DNA from: a virus
Lineage: Duplodnaviria > Caudoviricetes
IMG/VR virus record: IMGVR_UViG_3300005588_000038
Span: 1-63,128 of that record
Reading direction: 5' to 3' (one strand)
Length of the DNA: 63,128 bases
Shown: positions 3,392 through 24,152 of the stretch, in pieces
Numbering within the stretch: the first letter of the stretch is position 1
Layout of the letters: each line of letters starts with the position of its first letter
Program-made: the position numbers and the translations under genes
The notes under the pieces: model-generated
The model's input: only the letters and a program-made list of their open reading frames with translations
Told to the model about the DNA's origin: nothing
The model's database searches: none

Positions 3392-3405
3392 CAGCACAAT
3401 GAGCC

Positions 3406-6387: not shown

Positions 6388-6449
6388 AAATTGAGAGTAG
6401 CGGGCAGCCGCTCTCAAGAACAGTCAACAATCAAACAAGGAGAGAATCG

Positions 6450-6806: not shown

Positions 6807-6819
6807 GGATGGAGTAGCC

Positions 6820-7996: not shown

Positions 7997-8007
7997 GAGG
8001 AAGCAAG

Positions 8008-8268: not shown

Positions 8269-8443
8269 GAAAACCAGATTGATCTGCTCTTGCCTGGCTG
8301 GATGTGTCTGTGGGAATCTAGTGGGTCTTGGTTTTTCTGTTGTGTACGCTCCAGATAAAGTCGATCCAGGTTTTCTGCAGACGGACGTAGTATTGAACAG
8401 TGCCTTGCTTCTCGTTATCCTCTGGGTTTGGTTGAGGAATTGA
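8258..8443 (+). CDS. Small two-TM membrane protein
   Basis: Two hydrophobic segments. Confidence 0.55.
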   Translation: MNRKKTRLICSCLAGCVCGNLVGLGFSVVYAPDKVDPGFLQTDVVLNSALLLVILWVWLRN

Positions 8444-8446
8444 GAT

Positions 8447-8677
8447 ATGAAAAGAAGAAACTCCGGCAATTCCATCGAGGATCGATTCAATGTATCTCGC
8501 CAAGAGCTCCGTTGGTGGGTTCGTCCGTTTTCGAAATCTACTATCATCTTCTTGGTAGTAGTTTGTTTTCCTCTCTATTTAATTTACGGACTACTTCGCG
8601 GTGCGGTTGATGGATTGGCTACCGGATTGGTCTCATGGAAAGAAGAACTCCACAAACTCATTTTCCTGGAAAGGTAG
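8447..8677 (+). CDS. Small membrane protein
   Basis: Hydrophobic TIIFLVVVCFPLYLIYGLL; GAGG RBS. Confidence 0.55.
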   Translation: MKRRNSGNSIEDRFNVSRQELRWWVRPFSKSTIIFLVVVCFPLYLIYGLLRGAVDGLATGLVSWKEELHKLIFLER

Positions 8678-8683
8678 TGTCCC

Positions 8684-9217
8684 GTGTCAGTTGATAAGTT
8701 GATTCAGATGATCGAATCTGCAATTAAGAGGTGGAAAGATTCTCGAGACAAGATATGCAAGGATGCTGATGAGATTCGAGAACGCCTCGGAGAGGATTTG
8801 ATCCGGGTGCATTGGGAATTCGCCGCCACTGCTCGTCGGTTGTCGTGCTTGAAGCAGGTCTGCACCTGGGGCAACGGAGATGAAGGATTTGTTCCCGCAC
8901 CTGTTGAAAATGCAGCAGATTCGACCAGCACACCGGGTCAGATGGTGCTCGAAGGGTTTGTCGTTGAGTTGGATTTGGATCGGTGTACAGGTAGAATTTC
9001 GATTGATTTTCCTAAGGAGTACGCAGGAGAACAACAGGAATTCGATTTCAATGGTGATGTGGATTTAGTCACGGGTGAGGCTATCAATAATTGGGTTGAG
9101 GAGTTCAAGAAGTCAATCTGCGAAAATCGACGAATTCGATTGATTGGATTTCCTCACCCCGAAGCAAAGAAGAAGTATTTACTACAGGTCTCGTTTGTTC
9201 TGTGTCTATCAGAATAG
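8684..9217 (+). CDS. Hypothetical protein
   Basis: 177 aa ORF in operon. Confidence 0.65.
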   Translation: MSVDKLIQMIESAIKRWKDSRDKICKDADEIRERLGEDLIRVHWEFAATARRLSCLKQVCTWGNGDEGFVPAPVENAADSTSTPGQMVLEGFVVELDLDRCTGRISIDFPKEYAGEQQEFDFNGDVDLVTGEAINNWVEEFKKSICENRRIRLIGFPHPEAKKKYLLQVSFVLCLSE

Positions 9218-9241
9218 GCTGTGGGTACCGAAAGGCAGGAA

Positions 9242-10096
9242 ATGAATTCAGACGTGAAAGTCTTATTAGGTGATTGCCGAGAAATAGTCCCTATGATCGG
9301 GAAGTTCGATTTCGTATTTGCTGATCCACCGTTCAATATCGGGCACGGATATGATGGATACGATGACAATCGGAATGATTACGAAGAATTCACGGCTGAG
9401 TGGATTGAGGTGTGCTGGGATGCATGTGACGGTGTATTGGCATTGCACGGTCCGGATGATGTTGCGGAGCTGTATCTCATCGCAGCTCGAGCACTAGGAA
9501 TGCGACGTATTGCATGGGTGAACTGGCATTATCGTTTTGGGCAGTGCGGGAGATCGAACTGGATCGATGCTCGTTGTCATTGTTTGATTTACGCGAAGCA
9601 CAGTGAGCACAAGTGGAATCCTGAGGAGGTTTTGGTCACGTCGGACAGAGCCTCAACTTACAGAGACAAGAGGATCCACGAAACAGCAAATGGCGGAAAA
9701 CGAGTACCAGGGACTGTTTGGGGTGTGCCGAGTGATGGTCCGTACTGGGGGAGAGTTCAGGGTACCAGCAAAGAAAGAAGAACGCATCATCCAAATCAGC
9801 TGCCTGAGGTGTATCTGGAGAGGTTGATTCGAGCCTATACAGATGAAGGAGATCGAGTGCTTGATCCGTTCGCGGGATCAGGGACAACGGCAACGGTTGC
9901 CAAGGCGTTGAATCGTCGGTGTGTGACGATTGATGTCTCAGAGTCGAACGTGGAGTCAGTGAAAAGGCGAGTCCAAGAAGGAGCAGTTCGGATTCAATCT
10001 TCGGTTGAGGTTTGTGCGCATCCAAGAACAACAGGATTGTTTTTAGGTGGATGCGAGCAAGTAGTAGTGTGCGATGATTGCGGCATGGTAGTTTGA
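9242..10096 (+). CDS. DNA N4-C/N6-A methyltransferase, beta class
   Basis: Catalytic ADPPF near N-terminus, HPNQLP, SAM motif VLDPFAGSGTT; no adjacent endonuclease. Confidence 0.93.
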   Translation: MNSDVKVLLGDCREIVPMIGKFDFVFADPPFNIGHGYDGYDDNRNDYEEFTAEWIEVCWDACDGVLALHGPDDVAELYLIAARALGMRRIAWVNWHYRFGQCGRSNWIDARCHCLIYAKHSEHKWNPEEVLVTSDRASTYRDKRIHETANGGKRVPGTVWGVPSDGPYWGRVQGTSKERRTHHPNQLPEVYLERLIRAYTDEGDRVLDPFAGSGTTATVAKALNRRCVTIDVSESNVESVKRRVQEGAVRIQSSVEVCAHPRTTGLFLGGCEQVVVCDDCGMVV

Positions 10097-10107
10097 TTGC
10101 CGTAGCT

Positions 10108-10332
10108 ATGCCTGAAGTCAGTTGCTACACAATGGATTTATACTGTGATCATCTCAATGATGATCACAGTCACGGCGAGTTTCCAGCGACGTACACAGGA
10201 CGAACCAATACATCGTGCAAGAAGCAGGCTAAGCGAGATGGGTGGAGATGGCATGCGAATGGAATGGTTGCGTGTCCGAAATGCAAGAATAAAAAGCAGC
10301 CAGAGAGTTCTGGTTGGGGGTGTTTTGAGTGA
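10108..10332 (+). CDS. Small Cys/Zn-binding phage protein
   Basis: DLYCD...C.KQAKRDGW...CPKC. Confidence 0.65.
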   Translation: MPEVSCYTMDLYCDHLNDDHSHGEFPATYTGRTNTSCKKQAKRDGWRWHANGMVACPKCKNKKQPESSGWGCFE

Positions 10333-10377
10333 TGGCTGACCATAGGACGGCCCGGTTAGACGAAAGGTGAGAAAGAC

Positions 10378-10626
10378 ATGAGTGGTAAGACTGCTGTAAT
10401 CTGGCACTACGAGGAATCTGTTCGTTTTCTTGTGGTTGAAGACGACTGGAGACGCTTCGACGGACTCTACATCAATACCGATGGTCCTCCTGATCTTGAA
10501 GAGGAGCTTCTTGCTTTGATGTGGGATACCGAACGGAATCAGTTGATCCCTTTCGTAGAGAAAGAGGAGTTCGCTGAAGCCGTTCGGAATGGAGCCTGGC
10601 TGATTGTTGGTGGCTTCTCTCTTTGA
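10378..10626 (+). CDS. Hypothetical protein
   Basis: AAGGTGAG RBS. Confidence 0.65.
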   Translation: MSGKTAVIWHYEESVRFLVVEDDWRRFDGLYINTDGPPDLEEELLALMWDTERNQLIPFVEKEEFAEAVRNGAWLIVGGFSL

Positions 10627-10681
10627 TGAATTGAAGAATGGACTTGAACATCTTAGGCGGTGCCTGTAGTCTGCCGAAACT

Positions 10682-11569
10682 ATGAGTCCAGAAAATCAAC
10701 TACCTCCGGATCGTAGCGACGATGAGTATAGCCGAAAATCCATCGAAGTCGCTGGTGTCAAAATCCCTTACATTGAATTCTTGAATCGCCTCGAAGCGAA
10801 ATTACTTCGAGGTGTGACTAATCAGAATCAATTGTCAGCGGCATTTCAAGTAAAACAGCCTCATATCAGCACGGCTATCAAAGACATTCGCGCCCGGTGG
10901 CGAGAGAGGACTGAAGAATCTCTCGAAGATATGAGGATGAATCGAATCCACCAGATCGAAAATATCGCTCTGTTGGCTTTGAATTCGTACGAAGCATCTA
11001 GAGATATCAAGACGGAGCACACTGTTGTTGAGAAGGTTTGCTCTGTGTGTGATGGATTGGGAACGGATGAAGATAAGCCCGGTGAAGTCGAGAAGTGCCG
11101 GCGGTGCGACGGATCTGGAGTAGAAGTCCAGTCTACAATGAAGAAAACTGGACAGGCTGGAGATGCTTCGCACCTCCGTCTGGCAAAAGAATGTTTTGTT
11201 GAAGCTGCTAAGATCGAAGGTTCGATTCCTCTGAGTAGTGGAGCTGGAAAGCTGACGATGCTCCGTACGGGTGTCGGGGTCGAAGATAACGGAGAGCTCA
11301 AAAGGTCAGTAGAAGGCTACCATCTTGAAGCTCCAGTGGATCAGTTGATGGCTGCGATGAGCGTCCTCGATGATTTGAAGAATGGAGTGAAGGTGGGTAG
11401 TCAGCAGTATTTGGCAGCTCACACCGAACGACAGAGACAAGGCAAGAAGAAAGCGAAGGAAGTCGATAGTAAGGCGGAGAAGCCGAAGAAATCAAAAAAG
11501 CCGAAAAACAGTGTAGATGAAGCATCTCCGGGTGAATGGGATTTTGGCGAAGAAGAAAGCAGCGAATGA
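10682..11569 (+). CDS. Putative terminase small subunit (HTH + DnaJ-type Zn finger)
   Basis: HTH NQNQLSAAFQVKQPHISTAIKDIRARW; CSVCDGLG and CRRCDGSG; upstream of TerL. Confidence 0.65.
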   Translation: MSPENQLPPDRSDDEYSRKSIEVAGVKIPYIEFLNRLEAKLLRGVTNQNQLSAAFQVKQPHISTAIKDIRARWRERTEESLEDMRMNRIHQIENIALLALNSYEASRDIKTEHTVVEKVCSVCDGLGTDEDKPGEVEKCRRCDGSGVEVQSTMKKTGQAGDASHLRLAKECFVEAAKIEGSIPLSSGAGKLTMLRTGVGVEDNGELKRSVEGYHLEAPVDQLMAAMSVLDDLKNGVKVGSQQYLAAHTERQRQGKKKAKEVDSKAEKPKKSKKPKNSVDEASPGEWDFGEEESSE

Positions 11570-12504
11570 GAGTTTTGGTGACAGGGGCGGCGGGATTTAT
11601 CGGGAGTCACTTAGTTGACTCCTTGCTTCGTGATGGACATACTGTGATTGGATGGGACGATTTCAGTAGCGGAAGTATCAAGAAGGTTTCGCACATCCAA
11701 GGGGTCCATCCAAATTTCCATTTGGTAGATCTTGACGTTACACAGAAGAAGAGAATCCAAGAATTCACTGAACACGTTCTATCGGGTTCGATTGATTGGA
11801 TCTACCATTTAGCAGCAGTGAGCAGGATCCAGCCGTCCATCAAAGATCCAGACAGAACCTGGGAAGTGAATGTAGATGGAACCAAGAATGTATTGGATTT
11901 TGCTGCTGCTGTGCGATCTAAGGTAGTCTTTGCATCAACCAGTGCATTGCAAGCTGATTGGCAGCTCAACCCCTATGCAGGTACCAAGTACCTGGCAGAG
12001 CACTTGTGCCGTTGGTACCACCAGCGAGGACGGGTTTGGACTGCTGTGTTTCGATTGTTTAACGTGTACGGACCACGACAAATTGAGGACGGTCCATATT
12101 CTACGGTGATGGGGTGCTGGGAGAAAACTTTACGAGATGGGTGCTCAGGTATCTTGGTGACCGGCGACGGCAGTCAGGTCCGAGATTTCGTTCATGTTGA
12201 CGATGTTGTCAGAATTATGCGGAAGGCTGAGAGCACGAATTTTCAAGTGTATCACAGTGATTCGGAATTAACTGAAGATTGGTATGATGTAGGGACGGAA
12301 ATCGGTTGGTCGATTTCTGCTCTAGCTGAGATGTACCAAGCACAGACTATTGGAACAGGCATACGGCCTGGAGAAGCTCGCAAGACGGTCGCGTGTGTGG
12401 ATTGGTTAGAGAAGATGGGTATCAGTGATCGGTGCGGACGGCGTGTAGAGGATCACATTTCAGAATTCCTGAAGCAGCAATCGATTCAAGGGTGCAAAGA
12501 ATGA
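11566..12504 (+). CDS. NAD-dependent nucleotide-sugar epimerase/dehydratase (extended SDR)
   Basis: VTGAAGFIGSHL, HLAA, YAGTK (YxxxK), RLFNVYGP, GDGSQVRDFVHV. Confidence 0.95.
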   Translation: MRVLVTGAAGFIGSHLVDSLLRDGHTVIGWDDFSSGSIKKVSHIQGVHPNFHLVDLDVTQKKRIQEFTEHVLSGSIDWIYHLAAVSRIQPSIKDPDRTWEVNVDGTKNVLDFAAAVRSKVVFASTSALQADWQLNPYAGTKYLAEHLCRWYHQRGRVWTAVFRLFNVYGPRQIEDGPYSTVMGCWEKTLRDGCSGILVTGDGSQVRDFVHVDDVVRIMRKAESTNFQVYHSDSELTEDWYDVGTEIGWSISALAEMYQAQTIGTGIRPGEARKTVACVDWLEKMGISDRCGRRVEDHISEFLKQQSIQGCKE

Positions 12505-14177
12505 CTGATCGTGAAGATGTGCTGGGAGTCGATCTTCCGAATCCAGGATTAGGTGATATTCGAGGCACAGGGAAACGGATGCAGTACAACAGAGATCTCG
12601 TGGCAAAAGAGCGCGCAATCCAATTGGCGTATCAGAAGCGGAGTGCTGACGATTTCTTGTGCTTTGTCCGGGGCTTGACTATTGATTCTCAAGGCGGACC
12701 TCGAATCTTTGACAGGTGCATGGCGGATTACCAGAGGAGTTTTTTCGAAGAATTGGCCCCGAGTGTTGAGGCTCTGAGGAAAGGCGATAAACCGGAATGG
12801 AGAAGATTCTGGGTCGAAAGGACCAAGAAAGCCGGAAAAGACTCTGACTTGGCTGTCGTTGTGCTTTGGTTGTTGGCATTTCCTATCAGGCCCTTTTATA
12901 TTCAGATTGGAGCGGCTAACAAAGAACAAGCAGCCATTGTCAAAGCGCGTATCAACCATCTTTTGCACCACAACAAATGGCTCAACGAAAGAGTTACGGT
13001 TGTGCAGTGGTCGGCTCGAAGTGCGGAAGAAATGGCTGATGGATCTCCGATGGCAAACCTGCACATCATGTCATCCGACATTGCCGGTGCTCACGGAGGT
13101 ACTCCTGACCTTCTGGTGATCAACGAATTGAGCCACGTGAATCGCTGGGAGTTTGCTGAAAACCTGATGGACAATGCCGACGGTGTGGCCCAGGGTGTGG
13201 TCATCATCGCAACCAATGCAGGTTACACAGGCTCTAAGGCTGAGGTTTGGCGAAAGAATGCCATGGAGTCTGACGTCTGGCGAGTGTTTGTCTGGGCTCG
13301 CCCTGCTCCATGGCACGATAAATCTACAATCGAGGATGCGAAGAAGAGAAACCCAAGAAGTAGGTATCTTCGGCTCTGGTGGGGTGTGTGGGTATCTGGG
13401 AAAGGCGATGCAGTGGCCCAAGAGGTCATCGAATCGTGTTTTTCTCTAGAAGGCCCGGCTTTGCCGGATTCTGAGATGACTTATATTGCAGGACTCGACT
13501 TAGGAGTCAGCCATGACCATGCTGGATTCGCAGTGCTCGGGGTGCACTATGCCAAGCAGCAGATCATCACCGCCTATTGGAAGAGATGGAAACCAAAGGC
13601 TAAGACCGGGGAAGTGGATCTGATTGATGTCGAGAGAGAGTGCCGAGACATCCACAAAACTTATCGATTGATGGGTCTATTTTTCGATCCGCACCAGGCA
13701 GCGTTGATGGCTCAGCGGCTTCGTCGAAAAGGCGTACCGATGCGAAAAATGTCCTTCGCATCTCCAGCCAATCTGATCAAGATGGCAACGGCGTTTGTGC
13801 AGGTCATCAGTGACGGCAGATTCCACTGCTATGATGATGAAGAAGAAACTCTCAAGAATGATTTTGGGAAGTTTGATATTGAAGAAAAAACCAGTGGACA
13901 GAAGCTGGTCGCCACCAGTGACCAAACCGGGCATGCTGATGTCGGAACAGCAGTCGCTATCGCCTTGCCAGCGGCTCTCGAATTGCTCGAAGGTTACCAA
14001 TCTCAGTTATCACCAGATGACGATATCATTGTAGACGACGGCACTGCAGACGATTTGACGGAAGAAGAAATGGATGCAATGCCTGACGAACTTCGAGAAA
14101 TTTGCGATTCAGATGAAAGTGAGGAAGCTTCGTCGTTGAGTGACCTCGGTGACAGTTGGAGTACGGCATTTGATTAG
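12501..14177 (+). CDS. Terminase large subunit
   Basis: Walker A-like RTKKAGKD, AANKEQA, Walker B-like LLVINE, ATNAG, RNase H-like AGLDLGVSHD, FDPHQ, GHAD. Confidence 0.9.
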   Translation: MTDREDVLGVDLPNPGLGDIRGTGKRMQYNRDLVAKERAIQLAYQKRSADDFLCFVRGLTIDSQGGPRIFDRCMADYQRSFFEELAPSVEALRKGDKPEWRRFWVERTKKAGKDSDLAVVVLWLLAFPIRPFYIQIGAANKEQAAIVKARINHLLHHNKWLNERVTVVQWSARSAEEMADGSPMANLHIMSSDIAGAHGGTPDLLVINELSHVNRWEFAENLMDNADGVAQGVVIIATNAGYTGSKAEVWRKNAMESDVWRVFVWARPAPWHDKSTIEDAKKRNPRSRYLRLWWGVWVSGKGDAVAQEVIESCFSLEGPALPDSEMTYIAGLDLGVSHDHAGFAVLGVHYAKQQIITAYWKRWKPKAKTGEVDLIDVERECRDIHKTYRLMGLFFDPHQAALMAQRLRRKGVPMRKMSFASPANLIKMATAFVQVISDGRFHCYDDEEETLKNDFGKFDIEEKTSGQKLVATSDQTGHADVGTAVAIALPAALELLEGYQSQLSPDDDIIVDDGTADDLTEEEMDAMPDELREICDSDESEEASSLSDLGDSWSTAFD

Positions 14178-14291
14178 AATCTAAAGAATTCAGCGACCAT
14201 CTGTCTTGTTATTCTTTGTGAGCAGGTTAAGATGGTGCGCATGCTTCGTGGCTGGTCAGGTTTTGTGTTTCTCATTCCGAGGAGTAAGTCG

Positions 14292-15032
14292 ATGCGGTTT
14301 CGAGCGTTTGAAAATTGCAAGATTTTCGTTTGGGCGGCGGTGCTGGGGATACTTTTGAATGCCCCGATGCATGCGGCAGGTGACGTGACTCTTGTCATCA
14401 ACAGGCATGGTGGTTTTCTTGTTGATACGGCGACAAATCCGCCGACTGTTACACCGGTGCCGGCAGACAGATTGGTTATTGACTCTGAAGTCGGTGTGCC
14501 TAATCCGCCGCCGAAAGATCCGGATGATCCGAATCCAAAGCCGCCGACTGATGCGGTCACTCAGAAGATTGTCGACGCATCCAAGCTCCATCTGAAATCC
14601 GAAAAAGAAGCTCGATCACTGATGGCAACGATTGATCTACTTCGTGATTTGATGGAGAAAGGCAGCCTGAAGGCAGAGCAGGTAGACGCTGCTCTTAAAG
14701 TCAGTCTTCCCGTGATTGCTGCACAACTCAACGCAGGCAGTCGTATCAACGATTGGTATGCAGCAGTCAAAGAAGCAGTGGGCGGTGCTCTCAATACTGC
14801 GGCGATGAAAAAAGTGACTTCAGCTCTTGCATTTGCCTGGAAAATTGATGCTGCTCGTGCTCAACTTCAGATCAAGGCCGCAATTTCAAAAATTGCAGGC
14901 GGCGAAACTGTCGGTGATGCAGCTGAAGCTGTGACAGGAACTGCAGAAGAAGCCTTTGACATCGGTACAATTCTGATGATCATCCAAGCGATTCTGGAAC
15001 TTCTCAAATCCATCGGAATCATCGGAGGTTGA
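14292..15032 (+). CDS. Exported/membrane protein with Pro-rich linker and hydrophobic C-terminus
   Basis: Signal-peptide-like N-terminus, PNPPPKDPDDPNPKPP, C-terminal IGTILMIIQAILELLKSIGIIGG; GAGGAG RBS. Confidence 0.7.
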   Translation: MRFRAFENCKIFVWAAVLGILLNAPMHAAGDVTLVINRHGGFLVDTATNPPTVTPVPADRLVIDSEVGVPNPPPKDPDDPNPKPPTDAVTQKIVDASKLHLKSEKEARSLMATIDLLRDLMEKGSLKAEQVDAALKVSLPVIAAQLNAGSRINDWYAAVKEAVGGALNTAAMKKVTSALAFAWKIDAARAQLQIKAAISKIAGGETVGDAAEAVTGTAEEAFDIGTILMIIQAILELLKSIGIIGG

Positions 15033-15033
15033 G

Positions 15034-16092
15034 ATGACACCAGTTGAGCAAAAAGTAATCCAAAGAGCATGGGATACCGGTCATTTTTGGTCCCAAGAAG
15101 CCCTCAAGGAAGGGGGTGTGCTGTCACTTTCTGATTTGAAGAAAGTCAAAGTGACAGATCCGGTTGTAGTAGCTGCTCTGCGGTCTCTGTCGCAGTCTGA
15201 ATCAGTGGTGTACTCGTCTGCTTGCGAGCATATCTACGGCAGGCAGCCGGTGTTTGATGGTGCTGTGGGACCAGCAATGGCTGCAATGGTGCAGGTCCCT
15301 AGGTGCTATGTACCAGACGTGCCGCCGCCGCCAAATGCTGCTGTTGATTATTCTGATCCAGATATCAACACTGTTGCTCGGATGATGCAGGACGATTCAA
15401 TCCGGCAAGCAACCGGCAGCGGAAATTGGGCTCATTGCCACGGAGTAGGAGATTACCACTCGGCTGTTGTTCGGGTAAAAACCAGCGGAACACCGTCTTT
15501 TCTCAAACCGGTATTCTCTGATGTACTCAAAAGAGTGCAAAAGGGATACGCAGGGATTGGATTGCTGTTTCATTTCATTGATGAGAATAAAACTGATCTG
15601 TTGACAGGCGAAGAATGGAGCGGAGCCGTCAACATCGAGTTCAGTTTCGTGAGTTCGTCTTCTGGTTGGATTGGTCTTGCGATTGTCGGGAATGGGCAAG
15701 GGTGCACATCTAACATCTGGTGTCGGTATTTGTCTACCTACAGAGGCGGCAGTTCGGCTGATTCGATTGCTCGGCAGTGGACGTCACTGATTGCGCACGA
15801 GCTAGGCCACAATTGCGGTCTGGATCATTCTCGCGGCGGTGTGATGAATTCGTCGATTGTCAACAATCTGCCGGATCCGTGGGTAGATAGTGATCCATCG
15901 ACTCGAATTCTGAAGTCGTGGTACGGCGGTGAGCCAGTACCGATGGATAAACCAGAACCGCCAGCTCCTCCAAAGCCTGATCGAATTGATGAATTGGAAA
16001 AAAGAGTCGATCAGGTTGAAGCCAAGCTGCTTGCTCAGCTTGGGGTCAATCAGTATCTCTTGAGTCGAATCTCAGATTTGGAGAATTCATAG
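15034..16092 (+). CDS. Matrixin/MMP-like (M10) zinc metallopeptidase with cysteine-switch-like motif
   Basis: HELGHNCGLDH (HExxHxxGxxH), Met-turn GGVMNS, PRCYVPD, DGAVGP resembling a PG-binding-type prodomain. Confidence 0.85.
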   Translation: MTPVEQKVIQRAWDTGHFWSQEALKEGGVLSLSDLKKVKVTDPVVVAALRSLSQSESVVYSSACEHIYGRQPVFDGAVGPAMAAMVQVPRCYVPDVPPPPNAAVDYSDPDINTVARMMQDDSIRQATGSGNWAHCHGVGDYHSAVVRVKTSGTPSFLKPVFSDVLKRVQKGYAGIGLLFHFIDENKTDLLTGEEWSGAVNIEFSFVSSSSGWIGLAIVGNGQGCTSNIWCRYLSTYRGGSSADSIARQWTSLIAHELGHNCGLDHSRGGVMNSSIVNNLPDPWVDSDPSTRILKSWYGGEPVPMDKPEPPAPPKPDRIDELEKRVDQVEAKLLAQLGVNQYLLSRISDLENS

Positions 16093-17015
16093 TGACTCGT
16101 CTGCTCTTTGGGTTCGTTTTTCTCTTGACGCAACCTTGTACTGCTCAGCTTTTGAATCTGAGTGGTAAGGGAGTTGCTTTTGATTTGAAGTCGCCTGCGG
16201 CAGAAAAACCCGACATCAAGGTCGAAGATGAAGAAACTGACTCGAGCAAATCACCGAAGCGTACTGAAACGGAATCGAAGAAATCTAAGGCGGCTAGTTC
16301 GGAAGAAAGTAGCAAAACTTCTATCTGCCAGTGCCGAGGCTCGAATCGAGGCGTCTGCTTCTGCTTGAAGGCAGGAGTCAAGTGCGGCTGCAATGCGACC
16401 AAGGGGAGTGAATGGTCACTTGACCCTTTAAAGAAAACGGGCAGGTACTTTAACCCAAACGAAGCACTTAAATCATTCCGAAAGAAAACTGAGACGGAGC
16501 CGGTGAGCTACCCGGTTACAGTCGACGCCTATGATCGACTTGCTTGGCAAGTCGGCGAGGCTGTCTGGACACTTGATGCCGGCTACCGGATGGCGAATGG
16601 CCAGAAGGACGGTACAGGTCGTTGGTTGTACAAAGACGGACGAATGTTTGATCTGTCAGCAAAGAGAGTTTCTCAGGTTACGAGAACGCTGTCAGCGGTA
16701 AAGGGTCCGCCGGAACTGCCTTCGACTCGCCGAGCTATCTACTTTGGTGCAACGTGGTGCCCTGGATGTGTCTGGATGTACCGAAATACGCTTCCTGACC
16801 TTCAGGAGTACGGCTGGCGATTTGGTGAAGGAGACAACCTTCATATCCAAATTGTCGACGCTGATGACGACACATTCGGTTTGATGCAGAAACATGGAAT
16901 CACCGGGCTGCCGACGACCCTAATCTTGGAAGGCAGTCGTGTGATCGATCGCACTGTCGGACCAATCAGCGCCGACCAGTTCCGTAAAGCTTTCTACCAG
17001 GAGACCGTGCCGTGA
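16092..17015 (+). CDS. Exported Cys-rich protein with C-terminal thioredoxin domain
   Basis: Signal peptide; CQC...CFC...CGC cluster; FGATWCPGC, GITGLPTTLIL. Confidence 0.85.
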   Translation: MTRLLFGFVFLLTQPCTAQLLNLSGKGVAFDLKSPAAEKPDIKVEDEETDSSKSPKRTETESKKSKAASSEESSKTSICQCRGSNRGVCFCLKAGVKCGCNATKGSEWSLDPLKKTGRYFNPNEALKSFRKKTETEPVSYPVTVDAYDRLAWQVGEAVWTLDAGYRMANGQKDGTGRWLYKDGRMFDLSAKRVSQVTRTLSAVKGPPELPSTRRAIYFGATWCPGCVWMYRNTLPDLQEYGWRFGEGDNLHIQIVDADDDTFGLMQKHGITGLPTTLILEGSRVIDRTVGPISADQFRKAFYQETVP

Positions 17016-17305
17016 AACTTATTCGTTTGATTTTGGTGATTCAGATTTTGATGTGCTGTGCTGAGGTGTTTTCGCAGGACTACATTCGGATTGACCCGAT
17101 TCCTTCGAGTCGACCGCTGTACTCATGGGAGCTGCCGTACCAATCCCCGCAGAGTTCTGTCTGGCGGCGATATCAGAAGCCGACTTACGAGAGTCGTTGG
17201 TCTTACGGCTGGACACCGTACGGACGAGGATGGACACAAACGTCCATCTATGACTTGCCTACGACATATCGGCGATGCAGTTGTTGGCAATGTCGGCGCC
17301 GCTAA
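17012..17305 (+). CDS. Small exported Tyr/Trp-rich protein with C-terminal CSCWQC
   Basis: Signal peptide, AGGAG RBS, GTGA overlap. Confidence 0.6.
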   Translation: MKLIRLILVIQILMCCAEVFSQDYIRIDPIPSSRPLYSWELPYQSPQSSVWRRYQKPTYESRWSYGWTPYGRGWTQTSIYDLPTTYRRCSCWQCRRR

Positions 17306-17462
17306 TTGGCGGGCGGCTGCTGTTGGTGTCGCAGCAGCCGTCGTTAGAATCAAATGTCCGTGCATTGATGGCAAGGTTTGACGGCCAGCAAACCATCTTG
17401 TATTGAGTAAAGGCTACCTGGCGGAATCAAATGAAAATAGCCCACTCTTTGGATTTCGATCA

Positions 17463-18050
17463 ATGCCGAGTCCCCCGGAATCGACAAACGGTTGGTTGGA
17501 CTTGGTCCTCAAGTCTCTGGCTGTTTTCGGCGCTATTGGCGGGTGTATCGCTGCATTCTGGACTCGATTGGCGAGTGCGGTGCTGGCTGCTCGTGCCGCT
17601 CATAGTCTTGCTGGGGTATTCGGTGAAGAGGCAGGCCCAGAAATACAGAGGTTGTTTGCGATCATCGCCCGGTCTGACGGAGAGCAGCAACTCCGACAAC
17701 GAGTCGTCGAATCACATCTCAAAATCGGAGTGTACGAGTGTGATTTATCAGGGAAATGCATCTGGTGCAATCCCTACCTCGCCGAATTGTTCGGGCTCGA
17801 CTCGGAACGAATGCGAGGATACGGGTGGTTGTCAGCTATCGTCCCAGATGAACGAATTGATGTCCAAAAAAGGTGGAGGATCAGCGTTGATCAGGGAATC
17901 CCGTATGACGACACGTATACGATTGAAAACCAGAGAACGATGAAGAGAGTTCGGTGCAGGTCTCGAGCTGATTTAGTCAAGGCCGATTCAGAACCTCTCT
18001 GTTATGTCGGATGGGTGAAGGTTGTACCGATTCCTGAAAATAAAGAATAA
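17463..18050 (+). CDS. Membrane-anchored PAS-domain protein
   Basis: TM LAVFGAIGGCIAAFW; GVYECDLSGKCIWCNPYLAELFG...MRGYGWLSAIVPDER...W...YVG is a PAS signature; no output domain. Confidence 0.85.
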   Translation: MPSPPESTNGWLDLVLKSLAVFGAIGGCIAAFWTRLASAVLAARAAHSLAGVFGEEAGPEIQRLFAIIARSDGEQQLRQRVVESHLKIGVYECDLSGKCIWCNPYLAELFGLDSERMRGYGWLSAIVPDERIDVQKRWRISVDQGIPYDDTYTIENQRTMKRVRCRSRADLVKADSEPLCYVGWVKVVPIPENKE

Positions 18051-18072
18051 CGAATGCAACGGAGAAGAAGTG

Positions 18073-18579
18073 ATGGCAACAGCTACTAAGACTGAGGTGA
18101 TCGCCGCCTTGAGCGTAGAGCTGGCAAAGCCGGACTATGTGACCCTTCCCGTGACAGGTAAGGGCTCGAAAACTTCCTTACTGCTGACGAAACCAGAGAT
18201 CTCAAATCCTGATCCTGCACCGCAAGTTCAGGCTCCTGCCGATCCAGCAGCTCTATTCAACCCGGTGCCCGCCGACGAACTGGCGGCGATCGATGATGGG
18301 CTGCTCGGCAGAGTCATGGATGCTGTTGAAGATGGCAACCTGCAGAGAGTCAGTCTGCAGATCCAAGTGGCAGTCGCTCGCGGTTACATCAGCTCGGGTA
18401 CAGCGACGGCACTGGCCACTGCCCTGCAGGCGACCGTCGATGATCCGGATCATCCAGCAACTGTGTTCGGTCCGTCTCCGTGGGAAACGATTCTTGCGGA
18501 TAACAACTGGACTACTATCGAGGGCCTGCCATCAACAGGCGGCCTGCCAACGTCGTGGATCGAGGAGGCAGCACAGTAA
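18073..18579 (+). CDS. Hypothetical virion-associated protein
   Basis: First of a coupled GC-richer block. Confidence 0.65.
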   Translation: MATATKTEVIAALSVELAKPDYVTLPVTGKGSKTSLLLTKPEISNPDPAPQVQAPADPAALFNPVPADELAAIDDGLLGRVMDAVEDGNLQRVSLQIQVAVARGYISSGTATALATALQATVDDPDHPATVFGPSPWETILADNNWTTIEGLPSTGGLPTSWIEEAAQ

Positions 18580-18995
18580 TGGGACTGTCAACATCACAGA
18601 ATCAGGTTACGTGGTCTGCGAGCAATTCCCAGTCGGTTTCGGCAGGCGGCAATGCCACGTCTGACGCCGAAACGATTGATGGTGCCATGACCGCAGGCAG
18701 TGTCACCGTCAAGGCTGACAACGGCGGAACTCCAGCAGATGGAGACATCGTCGAGGTCCGTATCCTGTACACAAACGGCGACACAGATGCTGAGGGAGAT
18801 TCGGCTGACGAATACGACGACCGTGACAGCATCCCTCCGGTACTACTCGACACGTACGAAACTGATCCGGCGATTGTGACGCTACCACTGATGGTCGCAA
18901 AGGCATACAAAGTCGACACTGTATCTCAGGCGGCCAGCAACTCAATCACCGTGTCCGCACAGGACTCACAACAGGTATGGGCTGATCCCTCGTGA
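18579..18995 (+). CDS. Hypothetical beta-rich structural protein
   Basis: TAATG coupling, GAGGAGG RBS; S/T/A/D-rich. Confidence 0.7.
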   Translation: MGLSTSQNQVTWSASNSQSVSAGGNATSDAETIDGAMTAGSVTVKADNGGTPADGDIVEVRILYTNGDTDAEGDSADEYDDRDSIPPVLLDTYETDPAIVTLPLMVAKAYKVDTVSQAASNSITVSAQDSQQVWADPS

Positions 18996-19807
18996 TTTAT
19001 CGAACAGTCACCAACGCCGATTACCGCCGCGTCGATCGCGGCCACTGGATGCTTGACGGTTGCCATCTGTGGCTGCCAATGCAGGATGCCGCTGGTGGTA
19101 TGTGCTACGACTGGTCTGGCAAGGGTCATCATGGCACGCTGACCGGCATGGACCCTGCGACCGACTGGACGACCGGAAAACTGGGCAGGGCACTGGATTT
19201 CGACGGATCGAACGACAGTGTAAATGTCGGAAACATTGTCGAGCCGGCAGGTGGCACGGGATACACGTTTACAGCATGGGTACGGAGGGCGGGCAGTAGC
19301 ACCTATGCACTGTTTGGCCAGTCGGACAATAATGTTCGCAGGCACCTTGTGTATCTTCGGTCTGCGGGGCACGTTCGTGTGATTCTTGGTGACGGGGGTG
19401 GATCGTTCATCACACCAGACAACGGCACGGCTACAACGCTCGATAAATGGCATCACGTCGCAGTCACGTTTGAATTCGCAGGCGAAGTCAAAATATACGT
19501 TGATGGTGTGCTCGCTCGTGCTCCAAGCGTTGCTGGGAGCATTTCGCACATCGACACAGATGGAAACAGTGATGCAGTAGGAGCCAGGCAGCGAACATCA
19601 TCGACGTCAGACCTAAGCCTCAACGGCCAGATGGCGGATGTCCGGTACTGGAACCGGGCACTGTCGCAGTCAGAAATCCGAGCTGTCTATTCCGACCCGT
19701 GGCAGGCGATTGGCTACAGACGGCGGGTCTTCCACAGCATTCCGCCTGAAGCGCCTCCAGGGAATAATTACAACAGTTTCATTCATGCGCAAATAGGGTC
19801 GTGCTAG
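18992..19807 (+). CDS. LamG / concanavalin A-like lectin domain protein
   Basis: DWSGKGHHGTL, GKLGRALDFDG, WHHVAVT, IYVDG, DVRYWNRALS. Confidence 0.92.
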   Translation: MIYRTVTNADYRRVDRGHWMLDGCHLWLPMQDAAGGMCYDWSGKGHHGTLTGMDPATDWTTGKLGRALDFDGSNDSVNVGNIVEPAGGTGYTFTAWVRRAGSSTYALFGQSDNNVRRHLVYLRSAGHVRVILGDGGGSFITPDNGTATTLDKWHHVAVTFEFAGEVKIYVDGVLARAPSVAGSISHIDTDGNSDAVGARQRTSSTSDLSLNGQMADVRYWNRALSQSEIRAVYSDPWQAIGYRRRVFHSIPPEAPPGNNYNSFIHAQIGSC

Positions 19808-19809
19808 CC

Positions 19810-20883
19810 ATGCCGATGATTCCTGTAGATACAGCGGTTGTCATAACAGTCGGACCGCTATTTGACGATACAGATTTCAAAACATTGGAGACTGGAGTTG
19901 CTTACAATGCTCCCGGCATGTCTGTCGATCTCATTAAGTCTCCTTTGACTGGAGCAGGCTCAAAAACGGATCTGACTCTGACCTCTGGTGGATCTCAGGA
20001 CTGGACAGAACTTGGCAATGGGATGTACGAGATTGAGATCACGGCCGCTCAAAACAATACCGAAGGTGAGCTCCAGATAGTCGGTGTCGCTGACGGTATT
20101 TTGCCTTTCATCAGTGCCAAATACCAAGTTGTACCTGAGCAGGTTTGGAATTCTTTGGTTGGGAACCTTGATTATCTTGATGTCAACATGGCCCAACTCC
20201 ATGGGAACGGCTCCGCGGCTTCGAATTTGATGAATTCATTCTTCGGATCGACGTTTCCTAACGTCGAGCAGTTCTTTGAGAATTCTGGAATGCTGGTTCT
20301 TGGGACTACACTTCTTTCTGTTACGAGTCAGACTCAGATTGTTCTAGCAGATGGTTCGACTAAGGATGACGCCTACAACGGATTGTCAGTTCTGTTGATG
20401 GATGCAGGAGTGAAGACTGATCGATGTGTCAGAACAGTAGAAGACTATGACGGTGCCACCAAGACACTGACTCTCGACTCGGCTCCTGATTTTACGATTG
20501 CTGCGTCGGACGGTGTGTTTATCCATCCGACCCAATCGAATCTGACGAGAATCGGAGGATCGGTCACTGCCGCTGCTTCCTTGAAGCAGCAGTGCCTGTC
20601 TGTTCCTGTCGCTGCTGTCGCAACAGCAGCAGGTGATGCGAATACAGCGACTGCGTTTGATACGGATCTACCGACTGAAAATGATGATTACTACGGTAGC
20701 GCTGACGGCGGGTCGGTGGTCGCTTTCGTCGATGCTGAGACAAATCAGTATCAATTCAAGCGGATTGTGGCTTCAACTACGGTAAGTGGAAACACCCGAA
20801 TTACACTTGAAGAAGCATTAGACGCAATTCCAAGTGACGGTGATGTTTTTGTGCTGTTTGGTAGAATCACAGAACTCACCTAA
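19810..20883 (+). CDS. Virion structural protein (collar/fibre-like)
   Basis: GPLFDDTDFKTLET, ELGNGMY, two related DD.Y.G...R...Y/S....T.TL repeats. Confidence 0.7.
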   Translation: MPMIPVDTAVVITVGPLFDDTDFKTLETGVAYNAPGMSVDLIKSPLTGAGSKTDLTLTSGGSQDWTELGNGMYEIEITAAQNNTEGELQIVGVADGILPFISAKYQVVPEQVWNSLVGNLDYLDVNMAQLHGNGSAASNLMNSFFGSTFPNVEQFFENSGMLVLGTTLLSVTSQTQIVLADGSTKDDAYNGLSVLLMDAGVKTDRCVRTVEDYDGATKTLTLDSAPDFTIAASDGVFIHPTQSNLTRIGGSVTAAASLKQQCLSVPVAAVATAAGDANTATAFDTDLPTENDDYYGSADGGSVVAFVDAETNQYQFKRIVASTTVSGNTRITLEEALDAIPSDGDVFVLFGRITELT

Positions 20884-20903
20884 ACCGCAGAAAGGCCTTA
20901 GAC

Positions 20904-22232
20904 ATGCTGGTCTTTCTGCAAGGAGGGTTGCAGCTACTTTCAGCAGCAACCAGCTCTTCTTCGAGTTCTCTGTCAAGCAGCAGCTCCGAATCATCGAGTA
21001 GTCGATCATCATCGAGTTCGATTTCGAGTAGCTCAAGTCAGTCATCGAGTAGTCAATCTTCGTCAAGCTCTGTTTCTAGTTCGTCGCAGAGTAGCTCAAG
21101 TTCTCTGTCAAGCAGCTCTGCATCGAGCAGTTCCAGCAGTTCGAGTTTATCATCGAGTAGTCAGTCGAGCAGCAGCTCGGTATCAAGTTCGTCTCAAAGT
21201 AGTTCGAGTAGTCAGTCGTCGAGCAGCCAATCAAGCAGCAGCTCAGAATCGTCGAGCAGCCAATCAAGCAGCAGCTCTTCTTCGAGTTCATCGCAAAGCA
21301 GCAGCTCTCAGTCGAGCAGTTCGAGTCAGAGCAGCTCAAGCCAATCGAGCAGCAGCTCTGAATCATCGAGCAGCCAATCTTCGTCAAGCTCATTGAGCTC
21401 AAGCAGTCAATCATCAAGCAGTAGTCAATCAGGCTCGAGCCAATCAAGCAGCAGCTCCGAATCATCGAGTAGCCGATCTTCGTCGAGTTCACTGAGTTCG
21501 AGTAGTTCGTCGTCAGTCAGCAGTTCGAGCCAATCAAGCAGCAGCTCTGAATCATCGAGTTCACTGAGCTCTTCGAGCTCTTCGAGCTCAAGCAGTCAAT
21601 CATCTAGCAGCAGTCAGTCATCATCTAGTCAAAGCAGTTCAAGTCAGTCGAGCAGCAGCTCCGAATCATCGAGCAGTCAGTCGAGCAGCAGCTCCGAATC
21701 ATCGAGCAGTCAGTCATCATCTAGTTCAAATTCTTCGAGCAGCCGGTCATCAAGCAGCAGTCAATCCGGCTCGAGCCAATCAAGTAGCAGCTCGATTTCT
21801 TCGAGCAGCCAGTCATCAAGTAGCCAATCGAGCAGCAGCTCTGAATCATCGAGCAGCCAATCTTCGTCAAGCTCATTGAGCTCGAGCAATAGCAGTCCAT
21901 CTTCAAGTTCTCATTCATCTAGCTCAATTTCAAGTAGTTCGAGTCAATCAAGTAGTTCGAGTCAATCAAGCAGTCAGTCATCATCCAGCTCTCAGTCGAG
22001 CAGCAGCAGCTCCTCTTCTAGTTATTCGAGCAGCAGCCAATCGAGCGAAAGTTCATCAAATTCATTCTCTGAATCGTCTTCATCATCAGCAAGATTGGTC
22101 CATCCAGCCGGAAAAACAATCAATGCTGTTGGGGTATCTGCATCTTCATTCACGTCAAGTGGATTCACGTCAAGTGGATTCACGTCAAGTGGATTCACGT
22201 CAAGTGGATTCACAATACCAGTAACTGAGTAA
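20904..22232 (+). CDS. Poly-serine protein (~379-aa Ser tract)
   Basis: Only long open frame; tract 20952-22088 uses mixed TCN/AGY codons with Q/E/L spacers; short non-repetitive ends. Confidence 0.9.
   Translation: MLVFLQGGLQLLSAATSSSSSSLSSSSSESSSSRSSSSSISSSSSQSSSSQSSSSSVSSSSQSSSSSLSSSSASSSSSSSSLSSSSQSSSSSVSSSSQSSSSSQSSSSQSSSSSESSSSQSSSSSSSSSSQSSSSQSSSSSQSSSSQSSSSSESSSSQSSSSSLSSSSQSSSSSQSGSSQSSSSSESSSSRSSSSSLSSSSSSSVSSSSQSSSSSESSSSLSSSSSSSSSSQSSSSSQSSSSQSSSSQSSSSSESSSSQSSSSSESSSSQSSSSSNSSSSRSSSSSQSGSSQSSSSSISSSSQSSSSQSSSSSESSSSQSSSSSLSSSNSSPSSSSHSSSSISSSSSQSSSSSQSSSQSSSSSQSSSSSSSSSYSSSSQSSESSSNSFSESSSSSARLVHPAGKTINAVGVSASSFTSSGFTSSGFTSSGFTSSGFTIPVTE
22149..22213 (+). repeat. 15-bp tandem repeat TTCACGTCAAGTGGA x4 + partial (FTSSG)
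   Basis: Exact copies at 22149, 22164, 22179, 22194. Confidence 0.95.
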
Positions 22233-22238
22233 TCCATC

Positions 22239-22595
22239 ATGTCGTTAATCCATGCGTATCAAAATCGAGGAAAAACCTGGGAATTCCAGATCAATGGATC
22301 TGACGGTTCTGCCGTTACTCCTGGTGATTCTGATAAAGTTCGGATTATCATTGGTCGAGAAGGACAGCTCGGAGTTGATTTATCGAATGCTGAATTGGTG
22401 GTCACATCTGAATCAAGCACAGATGCCGGATCGTCAATTACTACAGGTTCGACCAATACACTTCGTCTGGACGCAACTGATCTGGCATCGATTGAACCTG
22501 GGATTTACACTCTGTTCGTAGATTACTACGACAGTTCTGATGGCGATGAGTGGAAGAACGTCGACAGACAGGTGTTCAGTTTGGAGTCTACTTAA
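22239..22595 (+). CDS. Ig/BppU-like small structural protein
   Basis: Beta-sandwich-like pattern LRLDATDLASIEPGIYTLFVDY. Confidence 0.6.
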   Translation: MSLIHAYQNRGKTWEFQINGSDGSAVTPGDSDKVRIIIGREGQLGVDLSNAELVVTSESSTDAGSSITTGSTNTLRLDATDLASIEPGIYTLFVDYYDSSDGDEWKNVDRQVFSLEST

Positions 22596-23417
22596 ATGGG
22601 ATCGATTGTCGACATCAGTGAAGTTCTCCTAGAAGCAGGATTAGCCGCATCTGCGACGGAGACAGAACGTGCAATCTTCGCTCAAGTCATTTCTCGAGTC
22701 GAAGGACTGGTGATTCAGCATCTTAGGTACGATCCTGTGCAGCGTACTCGAACTGAATTCTATCCTCTCCAAGAATTAAATCTGTCTGGGTCAGATGGTG
22801 TCTGGCAGGTGAATGCGAGTGCAGCTTATTTCGAAAGAGCTAACCAAGTCGCAGGCAATGAGCTTCAAGTTCGTCATGTCCCGATTCGGCAAAGAGATTC
22901 ATCAGGAGATGGTGCAATCGATCTTCGCCTGGATTATGGGGCTCGATCAGGCACCAACGTCGGTTCGTTTTCAGAGTCCACCCAGAAGACAGAAGGTGTG
23001 GATTTCTGGCCTAATTATGATCAGCAGGATTCTTCGGGTTACGGTGTTTGCCGTGACGGAATTCTTCGGTCTCACGGAAGATGGCCTGTTGAGCCTGGTT
23101 CTGTCAAGATCACTTATCTGGCAGGGTATACTTCTGCTGAATTGCACGGGCAGGATTCAGCGGTAAACGCTCGACCCATTCTTGATGCGGTATTGACAGA
23201 ATCAATCCGCCAAGTAGGCAAGGTTTATTCGAGAATGAAGAAGGCTCGCGGCGGGTTTGGTGTCGGTCCTCTATCAGGAGAAGACCTTGGGGATTACGCC
23301 TACACGACTAACGGTGATCTGATGTCGTCCATCTTCGGGACGGGTGAGAGTCTCTTATCCGAAACTCGTCAGAGTTTGTCAGAGTTTGTCAATTATGGAT
23401 GGGCGATTGGAGGATAG
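22596..23417 (+). CDS. Head-tail connector (adaptor) protein
   Basis: RTEFY, SVKITYLAGY, EDLGDYAYT, L...Y-type C-terminus typical of gp6/gp15-like adaptors. Confidence 0.75.
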   Translation: MGSIVDISEVLLEAGLAASATETERAIFAQVISRVEGLVIQHLRYDPVQRTRTEFYPLQELNLSGSDGVWQVNASAAYFERANQVAGNELQVRHVPIRQRDSSGDGAIDLRLDYGARSGTNVGSFSESTQKTEGVDFWPNYDQQDSSGYGVCRDGILRSHGRWPVEPGSVKITYLAGYTSAELHGQDSAVNARPILDAVLTESIRQVGKVYSRMKKARGGFGVGPLSGEDLGDYAYTTNGDLMSSIFGTGESLLSETRQSLSEFVNYGWAIGG

Positions 23418-23419
23418 CT

Positions 23420-24138: not shown

Positions 24139-24152
24139 GGAGAACTTCAAAA

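Follow-up and report, generated by a model that had tools for sequence, protein, structure and literature searches.

Can a bacteriophage encode a latent protease built like the zymogens of animal matrix metalloproteinases (MMPs) and, if so, at which step of infection would such an enzyme act? The question is raised by a linear virus record of IMG/VR (IMGVR_UViG_3300005588_000038; Caudoviricetes; CheckV completeness 68%), analysed here over its whole length of 63,128 b (hereafter the window), in which an open reading frame (ORF) with an ATG start, 15034..16092 on the + strand, encodes a metzincin-type protease of 352 amino acid residues (coordinates including the stop codon). An initial annotation had described it as a phage metzincin with a "eukaryote-style" cysteine switch and full pro-MMP architecture. 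We are highly confident that the architecture is that of an MMP-like zymogen, and we consider it probable, from modelling, that Cys91 of the switch caps the catalytic zinc and that this Cys-zinc latency is real. Towards the statement as a whole, role included, namely that the protein is a phage-borne, divergent MMP relative, latent and acting at exit from the cell, we lean, though not strongly. The elements of the gene are the following, with secondary structure and predicted local distance difference test values (pLDDT) from an AlphaFold2 model:

15034..16092, + strand: MMP-like zymogen gene, 352 residues
15034..15333, + strand: prodomain, residues 1-100, helical and PG_binding_1-like (helices 3-14, 21-25, 32-35, 43-55, 57-68 and 80-85; pLDDT 95-98)
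15298..15318, + strand: cysteine-switch motif PRCYVPD, residues 89-95, with Cys91 at 15304..15306 (pLDDT 96 over residues 81-100)
15334..15420, + strand: linker, residues 101-129, with an extra helix 109-123 (lowest confidence of the head, pLDDT 77 over residues 121-130)
15421..15930, + strand: catalytic metzincin domain, residues 130-299, five strands and three helices (strands 142-148, 177-182, 201-206, 214-216 and 228-233; helices 158-174, 242-260 and 288-297)
15796..15828, + strand: zinc-binding motif HELGHNCGLDH (His255, Glu256, His259, His265), invariant among the homologues counted below
15844..15846, + strand: Met271 of the Met-turn (family consensus GGVMNP)
15931..15981, + strand: Pro-rich linker, residues 300-316 (pLDDT 65-72)
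15982..16089, + strand: C-terminal helix, residues 317-352, a predicted parallel trimeric coiled coil

Translation of 15034..16092 reproduces exactly the order of motifs that had been noted, DGAVGP..PRCYVPD ahead of HELGHNCGLDH and a Met-turn: residues 75-95 read DGAVGPAMAAMVQVPRCYVPD (nt 15256..15318) and residues 255-271, comprising HELGHNCGLDH..M, read HELGHNCGLDHSRGGVM (nt 15796..15846). The Pro linker and the coiled coil reported behind them are likewise found, as a Pro-rich stretch (residues 300-316) followed by one long helix (residues 318-351) for which a coiled coil is predicted. A word-indexed search retrieved 258 homologues at E<=1e-3, and in the best 120 of these Arg90, Cys91 and Pro94 are each kept in 118 and Asp95 in 119, together with all four zinc-motif residues in 120/120 and Met271 in 118. 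The same positions were counted in a more distant set, 140 of the 393 cluster representatives described below (24-48% identical to the window protein), in which Cys91 is present in 139, Arg90 and Asp95 in 136 each, the four zinc-motif residues in 140/140 and Met271 in 131. Conservation of the cysteine at this level, in 118/120 near and 139/140 distant homologues, places the motif beyond chance, and the finding by which the initial annotation would have had to be abandoned, a non-conserved switch cysteine, is not what the family presents. The commonest residues of the distant set are Gly at position 92 (60), Pro at position 89 (67) and Thr at position 82 (107), so that the consensus of the wider family, DGxxGPAT..PRCGxPD (the switch being also summarised as RC[PG][VI]PD), is nearer to the MMP motif than the window copy is. 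The stretch before the switch cysteine has a median of 92 residues among family members and is folded as helices in the window model; on these grounds we rejected the short-prosegment class of mirolysin and myroilysin, in which the cysteine lies in an extended prosegment of <50 residues.

The AlphaFold2 model, built with a 120-sequence alignment, has a mean pLDDT of 92.9 and a predicted template-modelling score of 0.84. Its best Foldseek matches in the PDB are zymogens, those of proMMP-9, -10, -7, -1 and -3 (E 6.5e-7 to 1.4e-5, ~290-320 columns). VIA-align superposed it on proMMP-9 with Z 17.5 and a root-mean-square deviation (rmsd) of 2.6-2.8 A over 202-211 of 217-227 residues (model residues 3..297), and on proMMP-2, -3, -10 and -1 with Z 16.0-17.1; over all pro-MMPs the rmsd was 2.6-3.2 A for 200-218 residues (model 1..303), the alignment with the pro-MMP prodomains starting at model residue 1-7. 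The MMP catalytic fold is recovered by itself against many MMP catalytic domains (Z 13-14, rmsd 2.5-3.6 A, 138-153 residues), and MMPs with a catalytic domain only, karilysin included, give Z 13.3-14.0 on model residues 118..304. Since whole zymogens outscore them, the prodomain is modelled at the position of a pro-MMP prodomain, and the rigid-body superposition on pro-MMPs, together with the high confidence at the switch, suggests that Cys91 lies close to the zinc. In sequence comparisons, the family profile found proMMP-1 and proMMP-7 as its best matches among PDB sequences, with switch and zinc motif colinear: ..RCpvPDya fell onto ..PRCGVPDva, and HElgHncGlsHtnGgvMnPs onto the zinc motif and Met-turn of the MMPs. 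PRCYVPD was aligned to PRCGVPD of these two proteins both by the profile and by MAFFT. Single-sequence searches of PDB sequences, NCBIfam and PHROGs with the metzincin gave nothing significant, and in the ESM Atlas the nearest named clusters were matrixins, with scores of 0.81-0.83, below the level at which such a match is more than a lead.

Which metzincin family is this? A Ser or Thr after the third zinc-binding His is typical of matrixins, Asp of adamalysins, Glu of astacins and Pro of serralysins. Thr occupies this position in 77 and Ser in 34 of 120 homologues, the window protein having Ser266. The Met-turn is short, with M-N-P, and aligns to ALMYP of MMP-1 by the family profile and by MAFFT; Pro273 is found in 111/120 homologues, the window protein itself having Ser273. 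We also considered an adamalysin/reprolysin (M12B) assignment and rejected it: the Pfam models Reprolysin_2, _5, _4 and _3 all stay below their cut-offs (24.5/27, 23.9/27, 21.3/22 and 21.2/22.4 bits), and the pro-MMPs come out ahead of snake-venom and ADAM chains, whose matches are at E 5.8e-5 or weaker (TMq 0.25-0.30). Three features argue for a matrixin (MEROPS M10A) rather than an adamalysin: Ser/Thr behind the third His, the short M-N-P Met-turn and the ranking of folds.

The likeness to MMPs does not extend to the S-loop. With 12 sequences of the family and 10 of canonical MMPs aligned by MAFFT L-INS-i, the canonical stretches HGD..FDG and GGDxHFD fall in gaps of ~14 and ~13 columns of the family, and LAHA reads LAIV. 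The S-loop, with its structural Zn/Ca ligands, thus appears by alignment to be missing in the clade. An insert of ~30 residues, with helix 109-123, lies between switch and catalytic domain in the subclade of the window protein and is absent from canonical MMPs and from several family members. We observed in addition that Cys135 (15436..15438) and Cys224 (15703..15705) are invariant (120/120 and 140/140) and that His142 (15457..15459) is kept in 120/120 near and 129/140 distant homologues; these three residues may form a substitute disulfide or metal site in a catalytic domain devoid of the S-loop.

When 1.84 billion cluster representatives were searched exhaustively with the profile, 393 were retrieved at E<=1e-3 and 305 at E<=1e-10, which indicates a compact family into which ordinary MMPs are not drawn. 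These 393 clusters (50% identity) form a discrete clade, found largely on phage-like contigs and barely seen by Pfam: at E<=1e-3, among the 140 representatives, Reprolysin_3 matches 25, Peptidase_M10 6 and PG_binding_1 (PF01471) 4, the last with a best E of 4.9e-5, and the window protein has no PF01471 match at E<=1. Canonical relatives were sought by scanning IMG/VR for the DNA pattern of PRCGVPD, which returned 61 stretches; three lie in ORFs with a downstream HExxHxxGxxH (L059, L067 and L069), and the other 58, with no zinc motif downstream, look like chance and were discarded. L059, on an IMG/VR contig, is canonical (PG_binding_1 1.8e-14; Peptidase_M10, PF00413, 7.2e-31), and L067 matches Peptidase_M10 (1.7e-13) and the family profile (1e-13) alike. 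The third, L069:1692-2789, a canonical MMP on a 191-kb IMG/VR contig, has a signal peptide, PRCGVPD, an arginine run after the switch and a PF00413 match of 3.1e-41, and looks like a gene from a large virus of eukaryotes rather than from a phage.

With L059 as query, 183 proteins were retrieved at E<=1e-5. Most of the first 40 lack hemopexin and combine PF01471 with PF00413; four of these 40 bear bacterial names (Scytonema, Frankia, Paenibacillus, Arthrobacter) and the other 36 are presumed to be prokaryotic; the remainder of the 120 listed matches are mostly named animal collagenases and stromelysins. The pattern xRCxxPD is present in 35/40 of the prokaryote-type proteins, the Scytonema and Frankia entries among them, and in 111/120 of all listed matches. 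At database level, then, the switch is not confined to eukaryotes, and the label "eukaryote-style" was misleading. The tree (IQ-TREE quick mode, with support from the Shimodaira-Hasegawa-like approximate likelihood-ratio test, SH-aLRT, only) had 90 rows: 40 of the family (every fourth of 139 representatives and four close homologues), 40 canonical presumed-prokaryotic and eight animal sequences (the first 40 and eight chosen rows of the L059 search), L067 and L069, the remainder being left out. In it, the longest inner branch (length 1.27, SH-aLRT 99) separates the family from all other rows; L067 branches next on the other side of that branch, itself on a long branch that makes its placement unsure.

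The ends of the protein also set the family apart. In a calibrated signal-peptide test (a 10-residue hydropathy window of >=1.8 within the first 35 residues), 60/64 full-length animal MMPs passed, compared with 2/259 family members and 1/39 canonical prokaryote-type proteins, which shows, as far as N-terminal hydropathy can tell, that the metzincin clade is made without a signal peptide. At the other end, the tail (median 51 residues) starts Pro-rich, with >=6 Pro in its first 30 residues, in 205/253 members, and carries collagen repeats in 2/253. Three copies of residues 296-352 were predicted to form an in-register parallel bundle, with a score of 0.84 against 0.02 for the best control; at least 86% of contacts are shared between the runs, with a partner pLDDT of at least 79. 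In the calibration, the mark for this score was reached by 21/30 solved pairs and 0/23 single chains, with two copies used there instead of three, and many solved structures are similar to coiled coils; the prediction supports, but does not show, that the terminal helix oligomerises as a trimer.

What was claimed as full pro-MMP architecture stands, therefore, for a globular prodomain of ~100 residues ending in R-C-x-[VI]-P-D, for an intact catalytic domain and for superposition on whole zymogens. It does not stand for the S-loop, missing by alignment, for the signal peptide, which is lacking, for Peptidase_M10, which stays below threshold, and for the connection after the switch, with its ~30-residue insert.

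That the gene belongs to a phage, as had been assumed, is confirmed by the terminase, portal, head and tape-measure genes of the window, in which nearly all long ORFs are on the + strand and which also encodes a MuF-like head protein and a major-head-like protein:

12432..14177: large terminase (phrog_9, 1.4e-25)
24825..26453: portal
36874..39300: tape measure

No lysozyme, amidase or holin family was found in the 61 other ORFs of the window among the matches listed, which comprise 25/33 PHROG and 25/26 Pfam families. These 61 ORFs, outside the cassette described below, encode a nucleotide-sugar epimerase/dehydratase, a cytidylyltransferase, several methyltransferases and a glycosyltransferase-like domain, which suggests genes for surface-sugar modification, as well as a Laminin_G_3 domain, a sigma-70 region 2 protein and DUF932. 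Across the window (1..63128), every 2-kb bin except one has a positive GC skew, and no tRNA gene was found.

The host is probably a planctomycete bacterium. Near-full-length matches in GTDB species genomes number four, in three Planctomycetaceae metagenome-assembled genomes (MAGs; one of them on a 212-kb contig) and one Gemmatimonadota MAG (3-kb contig); within 8 kb of the copy on the 212-kb contig (L003) there is no hallmark phage gene, and in three host-candidate MAGs PF00413 finds only weak, unrelated long proteins. In GenBank phage records (50,697) tblastn gave no match to the metzincin at E<=1e-3, and the one close match in BFVD is A0A6J5RTD2, an "uncharacterized protein" of an uncultured phage (32% identity, E 4.9e-24).

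We mapped and clustered the ORFs around the metzincin gene in the window and in 18 related loci (19 in total). A gene of clusters F2, F3 and F14 (186-392 residues) lies directly or closely upstream in 12/19 loci, and one of cluster F1 downstream in 8/19. In the window these are:

14232..15032, + strand: upstream partner gene, 266 residues from the first ATG (probable start 14292, 246 residues)
16092..17015, + strand: downstream partner gene, 307 residues, with a signal-peptide-like start, a Cys-rich stretch and a thioredoxin-like domain with WCPGC

The signal peptides of partner proteins were judged by eye and by hydropathy. The upstream partner of the window has a signal-peptide-like N-terminus (hydrophobic window 2.04), a small three-strand sheet, a Pro-rich linker, a helical bundle and a conserved C-terminal amphipathic helix, and the corresponding proteins of other loci show the same layout of signal-peptide-like start, small beta region, Pro-rich linker and helical domain. 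It has eight database homologues and a model pLDDT of 76, and matches no Pfam, PHROG or PADLOC family and no PDB fold (best E 0.14); in L014 and L015, tblastn places its homologues immediately before the metzincin gene. The downstream partner matches Thioredoxin_2 (1.6e-8, 35.3 bits with a cut-off of 27), and this part is homologous to the L017 counterpart (pairwise E 6e-6). Downstream partners of the relatives combine a signal peptide or internal membrane segment with an S-adenosylmethionine (SAM)-methyltransferase and/or thioredoxin domain (Methyltransf_25 8e-11 and Thioredoxin 7.9e-6 in L014; methyltransferase in L015 and L027). The cassette is found inside late operons, and its placement varies between phages. 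It is flanked by terminase and portal in the window; in L021 its neighbours are a capsid-like gene (phrog_771) on one side and a weakly neck-like gene on the other. In L005 it adjoins a phage-type helicase and primase.

Some irregular copies and weak matches were also recorded. The cluster representative P0121 (717 residues) joins metzincin residues 2-355 to a methyltransferase-type partner, with Methyltransf_25 at residues 609-671; since the two genes abut without a gap in L014, the joined protein may have arisen by natural fusion, through loss of a stop codon or from an error in sequencing. A frameshift or an assembly error has divided the metzincin homologue at L021:6944-7847 into two overlapping ORFs (118 and 204 residues; two tblastn pieces). 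To the eye, the amphipathic C-terminal motif of the upstream partners (14930..15029 in the window) seems to be present again close to the N-terminus in some of the downstream partners; among 317 ORFs a hidden Markov model (HMM) of it found L017:7927-9081 (E 0.013) and L003:8555-9907 (E 0.062), too weak for us to claim a shared motif. The methyltransferase part of L014:8042-9091 and L027:7895-9076 matches PADLOC "mad2" over ~90-115 residues (8.8e-19 and 8.5e-12), probably through the SAM-binding core only; since these were the only defence-library matches, with none for the metzincin or the window partners, a role in defence was rejected. Behind the cassette of the window, 17012..17305 encodes a 97-residue protein with a strongly hydrophobic N-terminus and many Trp, Tyr and Cys residues, and 17403..18050 a 215-residue protein whose matches to PAS folds stay below threshold (PAS_3 7.9e-5), an uncommon feature in the late region of a phage.

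How could such a protein be used? We infer its latency, its trigger and its substrate along the following lines. The metzincin would be made late in infection, without a signal peptide, from a small mobile cassette with exported partners, namely a secreted helical protein and a protein bearing a thioredoxin-like domain and/or a methyltransferase. The switch peptide would run across the intact HExxHxxGxxH/Met-turn active site and, in the reducing cytoplasm, the Cys91 thiolate would sit on the catalytic zinc, so that the enzyme would be silent and phage and host proteins would be protected during assembly. Once infection has run its course and the envelope is breached, oxidation, thiol modification or cleavage within residues 101-129 would open the switch, and the opened, trimeric protease would cut an envelope or cell-wall protein or peptide and help release. 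A role on the lysis side is supported by the absence of lysozyme, amidase and holin among the listed matches of the window and by the precedent of Listeria Mtz-Tim (see below); we regard the exit role by itself as tentative, a little short of an even chance.

Several observations weigh against this proposal. Peptidase_M10 scores 16.2 bits on the window protein, below its cut-off of 24 and slightly below the Reprolysin models, and the match of the family profile to PDB sequences is weak (E 0.03). The variable Cys columns (93 versus 143, 230 and 261), taken as a proxy for contact of the switch segment with the catalytic domain, show no positive co-variation in counts uncorrected for phylogeny and are uninformative on this point. 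With the S-loop absent by alignment, domain stability and regulation may differ from those of MMPs. The exported partners would reside in another compartment than a metzincin without signal peptide, and the downstream partner is variable, with a thioredoxin-type CxxC in ~4 loci and a methyltransferase in ~5, so that a trigger based on thioredoxin cannot be general. An ordinary endolysin may exist unseen, as the record is ~68% complete and eight PHROG families and one Pfam family lie outside the listed matches. Finally, a virion protein would account just as well for the trimeric stalk and for the position of the cassette within structural modules.

This last point leads to the alternative that survives best, in which three latent protease heads are attached to the capsid or tail by the trimeric stalk and, once activated outside the cell, cut a surface layer made of protein on the next host at adsorption or entry; the switch would then still be real. 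The predicted parallel trimer (0.84 versus 0.02), the Pro-rich stalk in 205/253 members with collagen-repeat tails in 2/253, the lack of a signal peptide and the location within morphogenesis modules are what such a protein would be expected to show. We nevertheless consider it unlikely, because no PHROG structural family matches the metzincin, its constant neighbours look exported rather than parts of a virion, and the cassette shifts position between phages in a moron-like manner.

The latent exit protease must also be set against an ordinary endolysin, whose N-terminal domain would bind peptidoglycan and which would be constitutively active, the cysteine having a structural or other role. 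Some features agree with it: the prodomain is PG_binding_1-like (PF01471 in 4/140), canonical relatives are named [quoted passage not shown] in one source, the signal peptide is absent as in holin-dependent endolysins, and no other lysis enzyme is among the listed matches of the window. It is, however, the whole R-C-x-[VI]-P-D context that is conserved and not the cysteine alone, the domains are modelled in the pro-MMP arrangement with the cleft occluded, and Pfam, PHROGs and NCBIfam give no muralytic family (lysozyme, amidase, M15 or M23) for a protein with an MMP-like catalytic domain; we judge an endolysin improbable. That the gene was captured recently from the MMPs of an animal or plant, as the motif and the likeness of fold to animal pro-MMPs might suggest, is hardly credible for a family of 393 clusters (50% identity) whose long, well-supported stem separates it from animal and prokaryote-type MMPs and which has 15-20% identity to pro-MMPs and no S-loop, signal peptide or hemopexin.

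A broader conjecture, which we put forward as doubtful and rather unlikely, is that the phage clade and the signal-peptide-less prokaryote-type proteins with PG_binding_1 and M10 domains keep the ancestral form of the MMP zymogen: the peptidoglycan-binding domain of a wall peptidase would have been recruited as a Cys-capped prodomain for silence in the reducing cytoplasm, animals and plants would later have acquired a ready-made, redox- or cleavage-gated zymogen, and in phages exported thiol-disulfide oxidoreductases, encoded alongside the protease, would be coupled to the opening of its switch.

To our knowledge, lysis and entry of Planctomycetota phages are essentially undescribed, and the clade points to a protease function in them that is latent until release. 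It also shows that the pro-MMP design, with its cysteine "safety catch", is widespread in phages and bacteria and not special to animals and plants, and, as a large phage clade keeps prodomain and switch without S-loop or signal peptide, that this layout of the zymogen is old and moves among the viruses of prokaryotes. The clade offers a natural minimal pro-MMP for the study of the switch without an S-loop, and a possible outgroup for rooting the MMP family. Its value is tempered by the canonical prokaryote-type pro-MMPs with switch that databases already hold: the MMP-type zymogen with a cysteine switch is known and its prokaryote-type canonical versions are annotated, and what is new is a distinct clade, largely on phage-like contigs and barely recognised by Pfam, without S-loop and signal peptide, with a trimerising stalk (as predicted) and a conserved cassette. 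In the literature, the PRCGxPD switch is tied to MMPs of animals, plants and fungi, in the sections of the source used here (PMC6949598), and the main text of a 2025 phylogeny of bacterial MMPs deals with neither prodomains, cysteine switches nor phages and leaves the root of the family open (PMC12587646). In our literature search, with supplementary lists outside its scope, we found no description of a pro-MMP that is encoded by a phage and carries a cysteine switch.

Among known viral proteins, insect viruses (granulo-, irido-, nudi-, asco- and entomopoxviruses) have MMP-fold metzincins (BFVD E 2.9e-8 to 1e-3), but these belong to viruses of eukaryotes, and the phage "matrixins" of BFVD, of 162-199 residues, consist of the catalytic domain only. 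Karilysin of Tannerella forsythia, the one bacterial MMP that has been studied, has a catalytic fold of the same MMP type (8b2q_A; Z 13.5 with model residues 130..300), but is described, in the part of the source drawn on here, with a 14-residue prosegment and an aspartate switch (PMC6949598), unlike the globular prodomain of ~100 residues and the Cys of the phage protein. According to the same part, a prosegment Cys blocks the catalytic zinc in a bacterial metzincin (PMC6949598). Bacterial metzincins with such a cysteine switch are mirolysin (pappalysin family) and myroilysin (astacin family). Their prosegments are short and extended (37 residues in myroilysin; <50 in the class), unrelated to PG_binding_1, and they belong to other metzincin families; myroilysin is a weak sequence match to the window protein (E 0.4-0.56).

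A functional analogy for an accessory role in lysis is Mtz-Tim of Listeria, a metzincin of phage origin that is always paired with a secreted partner and whose expression raises sensitivity to phage lysis and to cell-wall agents, as stated in the portion of the report used here (PMC8235301). In common with the window it has a phage-associated metzincin with a secreted partner gene. Mtz differs in its Sec signal peptide and in its Gram-positive host, no cysteine-switch prodomain being described for it in that portion, and Tim is a lipoprotein resembling tissue inhibitors of metalloproteinases (TIMPs), whereas the window partners match no TIMP or solved fold.

Closer in build are the canonical prokaryote-type proteins, such as the "matrixin family metalloprotease" of Scytonema sp. 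HK-05, the "matrilysin family metalloendoprotease" of Frankia sp. CN7 and L059, which share the domain order, the N-terminus without signal-peptide likeness (1/39 pass) and a prodomain with PRCG[FVLMN]PD in 35/40. In contrast to the phage family, they pass Pfam thresholds, keep the S-loop and fall on the other side of the longest inner branch of the tree; as far as our searches show, they have been named by automatic annotation only. The animal pro-MMPs (proMMP-9, 5ue4/8k5v; proMMP-2, 1eak/1ck7; proMMP-3, 1slm; proMMP-1, 1su3; proMMP-10, 9csx) resemble the window protein in the helical prodomain ending in P-R-C-x-V-P-D, in HExxHxxGxxH followed by Ser/Thr, in the M-x-P Met-turn and in the way the prodomain and the catalytic domain are set relative to each other (Z 16-17.5, rmsd 2.6-3.2 A). 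The phage protein, in turn, is 15-20% identical to them, is made without a signal peptide and, by alignment, without an S-loop, has in its subclade the helical insert of ~30 residues after the switch as well as the invariant Cys135 and Cys224, and carries a Pro-rich stalk and a predicted trimerising helix in the place of the hemopexin domain.

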